A DNA stretch of 23,586 nt from a virus (IMGVR_UViG_2778261031_000008); one strand, 5' to 3'. Shown: positions 1,786 to 4,696, counted from the stretch's first letter. The notes: a model not told the origin generated them from the sequence alone. Made by a program: numbers and translations.

Positions 1786-1970
1786 ACGCCACAATTCAAA
1801 CGATACCAGAGCTTCTTATCCAGACACGAGGAAATCAGACCGAAGTGGCGAGGATGCTTTCCTGCGCAAGAGGAACAGTGCTCAAGTACAACCGAGACAG
1901 CAAAGGCGAGCGTCACGTAATAGTTAACGGCGTCCTGATGGTCAAACAGGGCAAGAGGGGAAGACGATGA
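1782..1970 (+). CDS. ninH: NinH protein (small HTH-like)
   Basis: 62 aa; IPELLIQTRGNQTEVARMLSCARGTVLKY...HVIVNGVLMV closely parallels lambda NinH. Confidence 0.8.
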   Translation: MNATIQTIPELLIQTRGNQTEVARMLSCARGTVLKYNRDSKGERHVIVNGVLMVKQGKRGRR

Positions 1971-2485
1971 GCATAAGAGAACTAAACCTCACCAAAGAAC
2001 AGCACGATTGGCTGAATGGCTGGCTTGAACTGTGGGGTGCATGGGTTTACTCAGGTCGCCTGGAAAAGCGCATGAGCAGCGTAATAGCGAAGTTCATGGA
2101 GAGCGTAGAGCCGGGAAGAGTTATGACAAGGCCAATGTGTAATGATGATGATGGAATGTTGATTTCTCAGGTCGTCGATTCCGTCATGTACATTGACAAG
2201 AAAGCCTTTGGCATCCTCCTCAGCTACTACGCTCATGGTTCATCTAAGCGAGCAATTGCATCCTACTATCACGCGACTGCAAAGCCACGCAAGATGTGTG
2301 GGCGTGGTGGTGAGGGATGGAGAAAACCTTCACTGGCAACCTGTAGAAATGAAATTGACGACATCCTGAAAGCGTCGTTATTTGTTTTGTACCAACCAAT
2401 GCAAAATGCTTTCAAAATGCGTAAACGTGTTGAGAAAGTTAAGCATGTTGCCGTTAAAAGCCTTGACATGCAATTAGCCATTTAG
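1967..2485 (+). CDS. Q: Late-gene antitermination protein Q (Q-family)
   Basis: 172 aa; position immediately upstream of the late promoter and lysis genes; WGAW...RPMCNDDDGMLI...LLSYY pattern resembles Q antiterminators of lambdoid phages. Confidence 0.75.
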   Translation: MSIRELNLTKEQHDWLNGWLELWGAWVYSGRLEKRMSSVIAKFMESVEPGRVMTRPMCNDDDGMLISQVVDSVMYIDKKAFGILLSYYAHGSSKRAIASYYHATAKPRKMCGRGGEGWRKPSLATCRNEIDDILKASLFVLYQPMQNAFKMRKRVEKVKHVAVKSLDMQLAI

Positions 2486-2492
2486 CCATAAT
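2463..2492 (+). promoter_or_regulatory. PR'-like late promoter (-35 TTGACA 2463-2468, -10 CATAAT 2487-2492, 18 bp spacer) overlapping the 3' end of Q
   Basis: Consensus -35 hexamer and near-consensus -10 read directly; location equivalent to lambda PR' and its qut site. Confidence 0.5.
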
Positions 2493-2502
2493 TAGAGGGT
2501 AA

Positions 2503-2544
2503 GCTGCCGTTAGTGACTCTTAAGTTGCAACGGTGGCTTTTTTT
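2503..2544 (+). terminator. Intrinsic terminator (tR'-like) about 40 nt downstream of the late promoter
   Basis: Stem 2503-2511 pairs with 2529-2537 (GC-rich, two G-U pairs), followed by a 7-T run at 2538-2544. Confidence 0.55.
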
Positions 2545-2548
2545 ATTT

Positions 2549-2623
2549 GGGTCAGTCGTATAAAGGTCATTACGGAAGGCTGTTAACCTTCTTATCGTGG
2601 TTCGAGTCCACGCTGTCCCGCCA
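2549..2623 (+). tRNA. tRNA-like gene, anticodon GUU (Asn) by hand fold; possibly degenerate
   Basis: 75 nt; anticodon stem GAAGG/CCTTC with loop CTGTTAA; T-arm CGTGG-TTCGAGT-CCACG; 3' CCA encoded; acceptor stem has one T-T mismatch and the D-arm is atypical. Confidence 0.45.
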
Positions 2624-2628
2624 AATAT

Positions 2629-2704
2629 GCTGGTTTAGCTCCAATGGTAGAGCGGTCGCCTTGTAAGCGAATGGGTAGCGGTTCAAGTCCGTTAACCAGC
2701 ACCA
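2629..2704 (+). tRNA. tRNA-Thr (anticodon UGU) by hand fold
   Basis: 76 nt; perfect 7 bp acceptor stem GCTGGTT/AACCAGC; D-arm TAGCTCCAATGGTAGAGC; anticodon loop CTTGTAA; T-arm AGCGG-TTCAAGT-CCGTT; discriminator A plus CCA. Confidence 0.7.
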
Positions 2705-2946
2705 TAACTGAGCCGTAGCCACTGGCTATCCTGAATTCATCAGTGATAGTTACGCTGCGGCATTCTACGCATGACCTTCGTGAAAGCGGGTGGCATGAGG
2801 TTGCCCTAACAACCTCCTGCCGTTTTGCCCGTGCATATCGGTCACGAACAAATCTGATTACTAAACACAGTAGCCTGGATTTGTTCTATCAGTAACCGAC
2901 CTTATTCCTAATTAAATAGAGCAAATCCCCTTATTGGGGGTAAGAC

Positions 2947-3270
2947 ATGAAGATGCCAGAAAAAAATGACCTGTTAGCCGCCATTCTCGCGGCAAAGGAA
3001 CAAGGCATCGGGGCAATCCTTGCGTTTGCAATGGCGTACCTTCGCGGCAGATATAATGGCGGTGCGTTTACAAAAACAGTAATCGACGCAACGATGTGCG
3101 CCATTATCGCCTGGTTCATTCGTGATCTTCTCGACCTCGCCGGACTAAGTAGCAATCTCGCTTATATAACGAGCGTGTTCATCGGCTACATCGGTACTGA
3201 CTCGATTGGTTCGCTTATCAAACGCTTCGCTGCTAAAAAAGCCGGAGTAGAAGATGGTGGGAATCAATAA
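2947..3270 (+). CDS. S: Holin S (lambda S107/S105 dual-start holin/antiholin)
   Basis: 107 aa, near-identical to lambda S ([53 protein letters not shown]...); Met1-Lys2-Met3 dual start with upstream CCCCTTATTGGGGG hairpin. Confidence 0.95.
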
Positions 3271-3730
3271 TCAACGTAAGGCGTTCCTCGATATGCTGGC
3301 GTGGTCAGAGGGAACTGATAACGGACGGCAGAAAACCAGAAATCATGGTTATGACGTCATTGTAGGGGGAGAGCTATTTACTGATTACTCCGATCACCCT
3401 CGCAAACTTGTCACGCTAAACCCAAAACTCAAATCAACAGCTGCCGGACGTTATCAGCTTCTTTCACGCTGGTGGGATGCTTACCGTAAGCAGCTTGCTC
3501 TGAAAGACTTCTCTCCGAAAAGCCAGGATGCTGTGGCATTGCAGCAGATTAAGGAGCGTGGCGCTTTACCGATGATTGATCGCGGTGATATTCGTCAGGC
3601 AATTGACCGTTGCAGCAATATCTGGGCTTCACTGCCGGGCGCTGGTTATGGTCAGTTCGAGCATAAGGCTGACAGCCTGATTGCAAAATTCAAAGAAGCA
3701 GGCGGAACGGTCAGAGAGATTGAGGTATGA
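3254..3730 (+). CDS. R: Endolysin R (lytic transglycosylase)
   Basis: 158 aa, near-identical to lambda R ([50 protein letters not shown]...). Confidence 0.95.
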
Positions 3731-4188
3731 GCAGAGTAACCGCGATTATTTCCGCTCTGGTTATCTGCATTATCGTTTGCTTGTCATGGGCTGTTAATCA
3801 TTACCGCGATAACGCCATTACCTACAAAGCCCAGCGCGACAAAAATGCCAGAGAACTGAAGCTGGCGAACTCGACAATTACTGACATGCAGATGCGTCAG
3901 CGTGATGTTGCTGCGCTCGATGCAAAATACACGAAGGAGTTAGCTGATGCGAAAGCTGAAAATGATGTTCTGCGTGATGATGTTGCCGCTGGTCGTCGTC
4001 GGTTGCACATCAAAGCAGTCTGTCAGTCAGTGCGTGAAGCCACCACCGCCTCCGGCGTGGATAATGCAGCCTCCCCCCGACTGGCAGACACCGCTGAACG
4101 GGATTATTTCACCCTCAGAGAGAGGCTGATCACTATGCAAAAACAACTGGAAGGAACCCAGAAGTATATTAATGAGCAGTGCAGATAG
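3727..4188 (+). CDS. Rz: Spanin Rz (inner-membrane i-spanin)
   Basis: 153 aa, near-identical to lambda Rz; N-terminal transmembrane segment. Confidence 0.95.
3947..4129 (+). CDS. Rz1: Spanin Rz1 (outer-membrane lipoprotein o-spanin), fully embedded in Rz in the +1 frame
   Basis: 60 aa; lipobox LVVVGC, proline-rich (PPPPP); matches lambda Rz1. Confidence 0.9.
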
Positions 4189-4219: not shown

Positions 4220-4513
4220 TTATTGTGAGCAATACACCCGCGCTTCCAGCGGAGTATAAATGCCTAAAGTAATAAAACCGAGCAATCCATTTACGAATGT
4301 TTGCTGGGTTTCTGTTTTAACCACATTTTCTGCGCCGCCACAAATTTTGGCTGCATCAACAGTTTTCTCCTGTCCAATTCCCGAAACGAAGAAATGATGG
4401 GTGATGGTTTCCTTTGGTGTTACTGCTGTCGGTTTGTTTCCAACAGTAAACGTCTGTTGAGCACATCCTGTAATAAGCATTGCCAGAGCGGCAGAAAACA
4501 ACATTTTTTTCAT
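4220..4513 (-). CDS. bor: Bor lipoprotein (lysogenic-conversion serum-resistance protein)
   Basis: Start taken at the internal MKKM (ATG 4513) with an AGGAT RBS; 97 aa near-identical to lambda Bor (lipobox LITGC); the ORF-track 113 aa version is an upstream extension. Confidence 0.9.
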   Translation of the reverse strand: MKKMLFSAALAMLITGCAQQTFTVGNKPTAVTPKETITHHFFVSGIGQEKTVDAAKICGGAENVVKTETQQTFVNGLLGFITLGIYTPLEARVYCSQ

Positions 4514-4696
4514 CTTATTATCCTGCATTGTTAAAAACGGCAGAATCCTATGTGACAACAATTAAACGATAGTTAAATGGATTGATGAAAATTAAAACTA
4601 TATAGGTGTACGGTCAGACTATTGGAGGTAGTCAGGATTTGAATGTCAGTCTGTTGTCGGCATTCTGGCAATGCAATTTGGATAAAGCGGGGATTA

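Follow-up and report, generated by a model that had tools for sequence, protein, structure and literature searches.

A phage 21-type tRNA-Asn(GUU)/tRNA-Thr(UGU) cassette in the late leader of an SfI/SfII/SfIV-like prophage, with a probable role in replacing host tRNAs destroyed by nucleases

Two adjacent tRNA genes, one for tRNA-Asn(GUU) and one for tRNA-Thr(UGU), lie directly behind the late terminator of a viral sequence of 23,586 nucleotides (IMGVR_UViG_2778261031_000008; the whole of this stretch is referred to below as the window). As judged from its sequence and surroundings, the pair is the phage 21-type two-tRNA cassette known from lambdoid and P22-like phages, and its carrier here is an SfI/SfII/SfIV-like prophage. 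The reading that we favor, at a probability of roughly 0.7, is that expression of the cassette depends on Q, that its tRNAs are under selection, and that they most likely replace host tRNAs destroyed by nucleases. This replacement role is the best-supported function for the pair; for tRNA-Thr it rests on published experiments with a variant that differs by one base, and for tRNA-Asn it is reached by inference. The feature is confirmed as real, and the interpretation given to it in the original prediction, an earlier reading of the same DNA, is correct and describes something already known.

Results

ARAGORN finds exactly two tRNAs within the 23.6-kb window, Asn (gtt) at 2549–2623 and Thr (tgt) at 2629–2704, both on the plus strand and separated on that strand by the 5-nt spacer AATAT (2624–2628), which was read from the sequence. 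With all positions of the Rfam RF00005 model matched (1–71/71), tRNA-Asn scores 55.3 bits (E 1.2e-9) and tRNA-Thr 61.2 bits (E 3e-11), both about twice the gathering score of 29. Two neighboring cloverleaf genes at 2549–2704 were what the original prediction had proposed; tRNA-prediction software, one of the checks that it had proposed, accepts both, with the same coordinates from ARAGORN and agreement from Rfam. The CCA that it had read as encoded in each gene is present in the sequence, and the tgt call of ARAGORN bears out its naming of the second gene as tRNA-Thr (UGU). Its description of the first gene as Asn-type with an acceptor mismatch and an odd D-arm is matched by the GUU anticodon and by two non-standard pairs flagged in the Rfam alignment, one in the acceptor stem (U4·U69) and one in the D stem (U13·U22). 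The further statement that tRNA-Thr folds cleanly does not stand, since the same alignment places at the top of the anticodon stem a G27·A43 mismatch that was missed in the first reading and that is invariant among variants of this tRNA. The identity elements seen in the sequence are the GUU anticodon and G73 in tRNA-Asn, and G1-C72, C2-G71, the UGU anticodon and A73 in tRNA-Thr. Identity elements for AsnRS are G34-U35-U36 and G73, and for ThrRS G1-C72, C2-G71, G35 and U36. The sequences indicate that both tRNAs are under selection, and both look chargeable.

The features around the pair, all on the plus strand unless stated otherwise, are those of a late operon controlled by Q. The Q antiterminator gene (1967–2485; Pfam Phage_antitermQ PF06530, E 1.3e-25) is of the phage 21/Sf6 type and is homologous to gene 59 of Sf6, annotated as “similar to phage 21 Q”. 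The late promoter PR′ (2463–2492) spans the end of the Q gene and runs just beyond it, with a −35 element TTGACA at 2463–2468 and a −10 element CATAAT at 2487–2492, together 11 of 12 matches to the sigma-70 consensus. It aligns with the −35, −10 and start site of pR′ as annotated in the phage 21 record OL657228, and by homology with phage 21 its own start site would be at about 2499. Between the −35 and −10 elements, at 2472–2487, there is a direct repeat, AATTAGCC / ATTTAGCC, that is likely to be the Q-binding element. The Q-binding element of phage 21, ATTGAGCA / AATGAGCA, occupies the same position with a different sequence, and because of this difference the repeat suggests that the window Q belongs to the same family as phage 21 Q but has a different DNA specificity; the phage L paper argues likewise for the Q of phage L itself.

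The late leader terminator tR′ (2501–2548) consists of a hairpin at 2501–2539 (−20.2 kcal/mol, z −5.4 by RNA folding) and a U-run, UUUUUUUAUUU, that ends at 2548, and this terminator stretch is identical to that of phage 21, where it is annotated with PMID 1704887. The tRNA-Asn begins one base past the end of the U-run (2549 versus 2548). At the right-hand junction, 3′ of the pair, a conserved hairpin at 2712–2761 (−28.2 kcal/mol, z −4.8 by RNA folding) has a sequence (AACTGAGCCGTAGCC...GCTGCGGC) that is common to lambda, HK446, phage 21 and the window despite their differing flanks; it may serve in RNA processing or mark a boundary at which modules are exchanged by recombination. The first protein gene of the late transcript is the lambda-type holin/antiholin gene S (2947–3270; Pfam Phage_holin_3_1, E 7e-30), homologous to Sf6 genes 60 and 61, which are annotated as S107 and S105. 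With the terminator ending at 2548 and S starting at 2947, the tRNAs are located just past the late terminator and between tR′ and the holin, as had been predicted. Three further lysis genes follow as open reading frames, the endolysin gene R (3254–3730) and the spanin genes Rz (3727–4188; Pfam PF03245, E 1.5e-54) and Rz1 (3947–4129), for each of which the homologous Sf6 gene is annotated with the same name. Between the lysis genes and an HNH endonuclease/terminase block lies a Bor-family lipoprotein gene on the minus strand (4220–4561; Pfam PF06291, E 1e-30), a placement typical of lambdoid accessory (“moron”) genes. The remainder of the window contains SfI/SfII/SfIV-like virion genes, with about 97–98% identity over 63–72% of the window.

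Both tRNAs would most likely be transcribed from PR′, and only at times when Q permits RNA polymerase to pass tR′, because there is no space for a promoter of their own between the U-run of tR′ and tRNA-Asn. Host tRNA-processing enzymes would then excise both tRNAs from the 5′ end of the late transcript. We infer this dependence on Q, which the original prediction had also proposed, from the layout together with phage 21 biology. A promoter belonging to the tRNAs was also looked for in a scan of 1800–3300 and is unlikely, as the scan gave only PR′ and a weak 9/12 match inside Q. According to the phage L paper, it is not known whether late-leader tRNAs are cut from the late mRNA. The BTP1 transcriptome paper names the “two tRNA genes” separately where it enumerates the genes highly expressed in lysogen cultures, and the RNA-seq signal of the BTP1 lysogen is apparently high for both tRNA genes; BTP1 induces spontaneously.

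The cassette is widespread. A 551-nt query around the pair matches 180 phage records, and the 156-nt pair itself is 100% identical in SfI and phiv205-1, 99.4% identical in HK446, Kapi1 and mEp506, and 98.7% identical in phage 21, Sf6 and BTP1. It is present in 369 of 5426 complete E. coli genomes (about 7%), where, among the matches listed, it is annotated as tRNA-Thr and tRNA-Asn. The tRNA-Asn is identical at 75 of 75 positions to the copies in phage 21, Sf6, L and JLK-2012. The carriers have different attachment sites, argW for Sf6 and icd for phage 21. In SfI (JX509734) 156 of 156 bases match and there is no meaningful difference within the cassette. For Sf6 (AF547987) the record gives, in the same order as found here, PR′, a phage 21-like qut, tR′, tRNA-Asn (AAC) and tRNA-Thr (ACA) “similar to phage 21”, and then S107/S105, whereas Sf6 as a whole differs from the window in being a P22-like podovirus with other virion genes. 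The phage 21 record OL657228 is annotated with the −35 and −10 of pR′, a Q-binding element, the start site, a pause element, the terminator (PMID 1704887) and two tRNAs, which start one base past the annotated terminator. The pair of phage 21 (39591–39746) has the same order, the same 5-nt spacing and the same place directly after tR′ as that of the window, with which it shares 154 of 156 bases, including the whole of tRNA-Asn and the tRNA-Thr anticodon arm; the differences are one spacer base and nt 26 of tRNA-Thr, which is A in phage 21 and G in the window. Outside the pair, phage 21 differs in the sequences of its promoter and Q-binding element and in having the S21 pinholin downstream rather than a lambda-type S holin. 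These curated phage 21 and Sf6 records, at a homologous locus of 98.7% identity, uphold the prediction of two tRNAs between tR′ and the holin in a Q-controlled late operon. HK446 shares 155 of the 156 bases of the pair and is closely similar from the tRNAs to the start of S, whereas its upstream Q, PR′ and tR′ are of the lambda type.

A comparable arrangement occurs in Stx phages, where the tRNA genes ileZ-argN-argO lie downstream of Q in the leader of a lambdoid late operon and upstream of late cargo. Those tRNAs have other anticodons, for rare Ile and Arg codons, and are without homology to the pair in the window; codon supply is the usual explanation for them. [quoted passage not shown]

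Since the same pair stands behind Q, PR′ and tR′ of the lambda type in HK446 and behind a 21-type terminator in the window and in phage 21, the cassette is, on this comparison, one that moves independently of Q type. Its left junction is the T-run of the terminator and its right junction the conserved hairpin of about 60 nt, present in lambda too. In lambda (locus L013, about 290–450) the place of the tRNAs between the T-run of tR′ and the hairpin is taken by an unrelated sequence of about 160 nt, which lies within the hypothetical orf-64 and has about the same length as the window cassette at 2549–2704.

When IMG/VR was scanned with a pattern for the tRNA-Asn lineage of the window, at least 120 loci were obtained. 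Among the matches listed, Asn-Thr(UGU) was the dominant combination (81 of 120), with Asn-Phe-Thr, with or without Arg and Gly, at 8 loci, Asn alone at 7, Asn-Gly(UCC) at 5, other combinations, mostly large arrays, at 16, and 3 loci lacking an ARAGORN call in the extracted segment; the spacer in these listed homologues was AACAT at 38 loci and AATAT at 36. In phage L the pair is Asn-Leu(UAA) and in JLK-2012 the set is Asn-Thr-Gly. In this slot of the late leader, the alternative cargo found beside the same tRNA-Asn includes Gly(UCC), Phe(GAA)-Thr-Arg(UCU) and, in phage L, Leu(UAA). A tRNA-Asn(GUU) next to or near a tRNA-Thr(UGU) also occurs in P1 (locus L009, 325–478), the N4-like phage 3HA13 (L011, 237–486) and the T5-like phage Cyrano (L008, 673–825). 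These three phages, from unrelated groups of coliphages, share one closely related Asn lineage that begins with GATGGTG and is distinct from the lambdoid lineage, which in the window begins with GGGTCAG. The combination of Asn with Thr(UGU) thus seems, from these separate lineages, to have been assembled more than once.

Variants from the same scan were compared for covariation. Among 21 distinct variants of tRNA-Asn, eight pairs have changed on both sides, and among 19 variants of tRNA-Thr four pairs covary, three of them in the acceptor stem and one in the T-stem; for each tRNA none of 500 shuffles reached the observed value and the slid-partner controls collapsed. The anticodon stem of tRNA-Thr is almost frozen. 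The non-standard pairs have been retained throughout, or nearly so, with U4·U69 unpaired in 20 of 21 and U13·U22 in 21 of 21 variants of tRNA-Asn, and G27·A43 unpaired in 19 of 19 variants of tRNA-Thr. The variants of both tRNAs also keep their anticodons, T-loops, CCA and discriminator base. Because U4·U69, U13·U22 and G27·A43 were kept while other pairs were compensated, they are selected features, and neither tRNA is, by this pattern of substitution, degenerate. The original suggestion that tRNA-Asn might be degenerate has to be given up, given that its mismatches are conserved over 21 variants, eight other pairs are compensated, and GUU and G73 are kept.

Discussion

In the reading that we favor, the tRNA pair would replace host tRNAs destroyed by OLD-family TOPRIM nucleases and would thereby let late proteins be made. 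The tRNA-Thr of the window is identical at 75 of 76 positions to the tRNA-Thr of phage 21 and of HK446, which are identical to each other, and differs only at nt 26 (G versus A), the identity of the tested tRNAThr21 being taken from the phage 21 genome record (OL657228). Govande et al. 2025 (PMC12445682) reported that P2-OLD acts at paired CNG motifs, at nt 28–30 and 40–42, and that cells were rescued by phage tRNA-Thr(UGU) molecules. In the same paper, tRNAThr21 of phage 21 “also protected against P2-OLD” and showed partial cleavage resistance in vitro, attributed to a shortened anticodon stem and a U28-A42 change. The window tRNA-Thr has UCG at 28–30, CGA at 40–42 and a 4-bp stem, whereas host thrU has CUG, CAG and a 5-bp stem; the complete anticodon arms are GUCGC/CUUGUAA/GCGAA in the window and ACUGA/CUUGUAA/UCAGU in thrU. 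The window molecule therefore has the features of the Old-resistant class, namely the UGU anticodon, loss of the 27-43 pair and an altered CNG motif (C28U/G42A).

Resistance to Old and rescue by the window tRNA-Thr, which has G26, are predicted from the tested copies with A26. The cloverleaf energies are −23.0 kcal/mol for G26 and −23.1 kcal/mol for A26, values to be read for this comparison only, as minimum free energy folding reproduces the cloverleaf unreliably. G26 occurs in 12 of about 88 IMG/VR loci among the matches listed, and in addition in the 100%-identical copies in SfI and in E. coli prophages. For the HK446 molecule, the authors of a 2026 preprint (bioRxiv 10.64898/2026.07.10.737580) independently described “strong counter-defense” by tRNA-Thr(UGU) for the Old-sensitive phages HK97, HK542 and Bas34. 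In the same work plasmid-expressed HK446 tRNA-Thr rescued neither lambda nor recB cells from Old toxicity, and the authors doubt that the tRNA is the main anti-Old device, HK446 also encoding the protein inhibitor Oad2. The rescue of cells or Old-sensitive phages by phage 21 and HK446 tRNA-Thr was in each case obtained by expression from plasmids. Timing speaks against counter-defense, in that events early in infection (Gam, replication) set off Old, whereas the tRNAs would be made late.

Two observations on related loci may be recorded. The GenBank record of HK446 annotates neither tRNA, and bioRxiv 10.64898/2026.07.10.737580 mentions “a single” Thr(UGU). Directly upstream of the HK446 tRNA-Thr, a complete gene for tRNA-Asn(GUU) (locus L012, 901–975) has the same sequence as in the window. 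The tRNA-Thr(UGU) of JLK-2012 (L005, 881–956) is a chimera, phage 21-like in its first 25 nt and near host thrU in the rest, and with UCAUC as the 3′ strand its anticodon stem has no more than three pairs. The gene resembles a phage/host recombinant that also has a shortened anticodon stem.

An alternative explanation could be codon supply, with the tRNAs augmenting the host pool for ACA and for AAC/AAU in heavily expressed late genes. This would be in keeping with the ACA frequency of 17.3 in the SfI genome versus 7.1 in its host given in the SfI paper, with the finding in the phage L paper that 24 of 25 Asn codons of the capsid gene are AAC, and with the status of thrU as the only host gene for tRNA-Thr(UGU) (PMC12445682). 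The codon counts in the 24 late genes of the window do not support it, however, and led us to reject codon supply as the main explanation: ACA makes up 12.2% of Thr codons, or 8.7 per 1000 codons, and AAC makes up an unremarkable 59% of Asn codons. This ACA usage is close to the average for E. coli. ACA is avoided in the genes of the most abundant products, being used for none of 27 Thr codons in the capsid gene and for 2 of 49 in the sheath gene. Codon supply also leaves the never-repaired G27·A43 mismatch unexplained, the SfI authors saw no bias that would explain tRNA-Asn, and over-expressed host thrU protected little or not at all against Old, whereas the phage versions did. We consider it unlikely, though the least unlikely of the alternatives.

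It is considerably less probable that the two genes are decaying pseudo-tRNAs, or that they act merely as RNase P/E signals for trimming the leader of the late mRNA. In favor of such a view are the acceptor, D and anticodon stems with their non-standard pairs and the conserved hairpin directly downstream, and direct evidence of aminoacylation was not found. Against it are the Rfam scores at about twice the gathering score and the preservation of all other helices by compensatory substitutions, together with the conserved anticodons, T-loops, CCA and discriminator base; on the grounds of covariation and conserved identity elements, a pseudogene or degenerate tRNA was rejected. Moreover, the tRNA-Thr of phage 21 and HK446 must be charged and used, because it restores decoding of ACA and rescues cells. 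The weakest alternative, that the tRNAs make up for a host tRNA gene that prophage integration has disrupted or are remnants of a former attachment site, was suggested for HK446 by the authors of bioRxiv 10.64898/2026.07.10.737580 and might draw on the integration of SfI-type phages into the threonine tRNA gene thrW (SfI paper), but it is highly improbable, and compensation was rejected on position, anticodon and variety of carriers, since a late-leader site behind a terminator is the wrong one for expression in a lysogen, the cassette occurs beside either of two different late-regulation modules (lambda-type or 21-type), the thrW anticodon is CGU and not UGU, the host gene is rebuilt upon thrW integration (phage L paper, for P22-type sites), and tRNA-Asn has no link to any attachment site.

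Replacement of nuclease-destroyed host tRNAs is the reading to be considered for tRNA-Asn as well. The AriB nuclease of PARIS cuts Lys(UUU) first, Thr(UGU) second and Asn(GUU) third, so that host tRNA-Asn is a secondary, biologically relevant target, and host tRNA-Asn(GUU) is among the tRNAs that P2-OLD cleaves more slowly than thrU. Host asnT has the full paired CNG motif (CGG/CCG) and A37, whereas the window tRNA-Asn has AAG/CUU. All AriB targets share U36-A-A-U39, and a change of U39 to A is sufficient to abolish cleavage of E. coli tRNA-Lys. At position 39, beside the AriB cut site (40|41), the window has C39 in tRNA-Asn and G39 in tRNA-Thr, in place of the U39 of both host tRNAs. Because the motifs that Old and AriB use on host tRNA-Asn are absent, it is plausible that the window tRNA-Asn is a nuclease-resistant replacement with a role matching that of tRNA-Thr. 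The placing of tRNA-Asn outside the top Old targets in bioRxiv 10.64898/2026.07.10.737580 is a counter-indication, as are the lack of a tRNA-Lys in the phage and the CNG motif borne by lineage members of the Klebsiella type. Loss of the CNG motif as a universal trait of this tRNA-Asn lineage was considered and rejected, as Klebsiella-type variants carry CAG/CUG and one variant carries a host-like CGG/CCG.

Of the three T5 tRNAs that together neutralize PARIS AriB, two have counterparts in the window, Thr(UGU) and Asn(GUU), and both window tRNAs are substituted at position 39. The T5 tRNA-Lys is described as required against PARIS AriB, and ARAGORN finds no tRNA-Lys(UUU), the main AriB target, in the window, which consequently does not carry the complete AriB-neutralizing set; T5 differs further in being virulent and in having a large tRNA array. 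A broader possibility, which we put forward tentatively and with the odds somewhat against it, is that Asn(GUU)-Thr(UGU) is a minimal mobile counter-defense cassette against OLD-family TOPRIM tRNases (P2 Old, PARIS AriB-like), in which tRNA-Asn would be the second nuclease-resistant member, its oddities (CNG loss, C39 and perhaps U4·U69) would be adaptive, and other defenses that target tRNAs would be tracked by the alternative cargo, Gly(UCC), Phe, Arg(UCU) and Leu(UAA). In bioRxiv 10.64898/2026.07.10.737580, Gly(UCC) appears among the P2 Old targets; for the Phe(GAA), Arg(UCU) and Leu(UAA) cargo no link to a defense system was found.

In itself the pair adds nothing new: hundreds of E. coli genomes, as well as phage 21, Sf6 and SfI, already have it annotated, and for phage 21 the placement behind tR′ is textbook knowledge. 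Of value is the link to recent work, as the window tRNA-Thr is one base away from a molecule that experimentally defeats P2 Old, to which the classic interference between P2 and lambda is due. The neighboring phage tRNA-Asn has as its host counterpart a tRNA that two TOPRIM nucleases attack as a secondary target. If that tRNA-Asn is also nuclease-resistant, and if the cassette matters from its natural position in the late operon, then this prophage feature, annotated as a matter of routine and contained in about 7% of the complete E. coli genomes, would be a defined anti-defense module.
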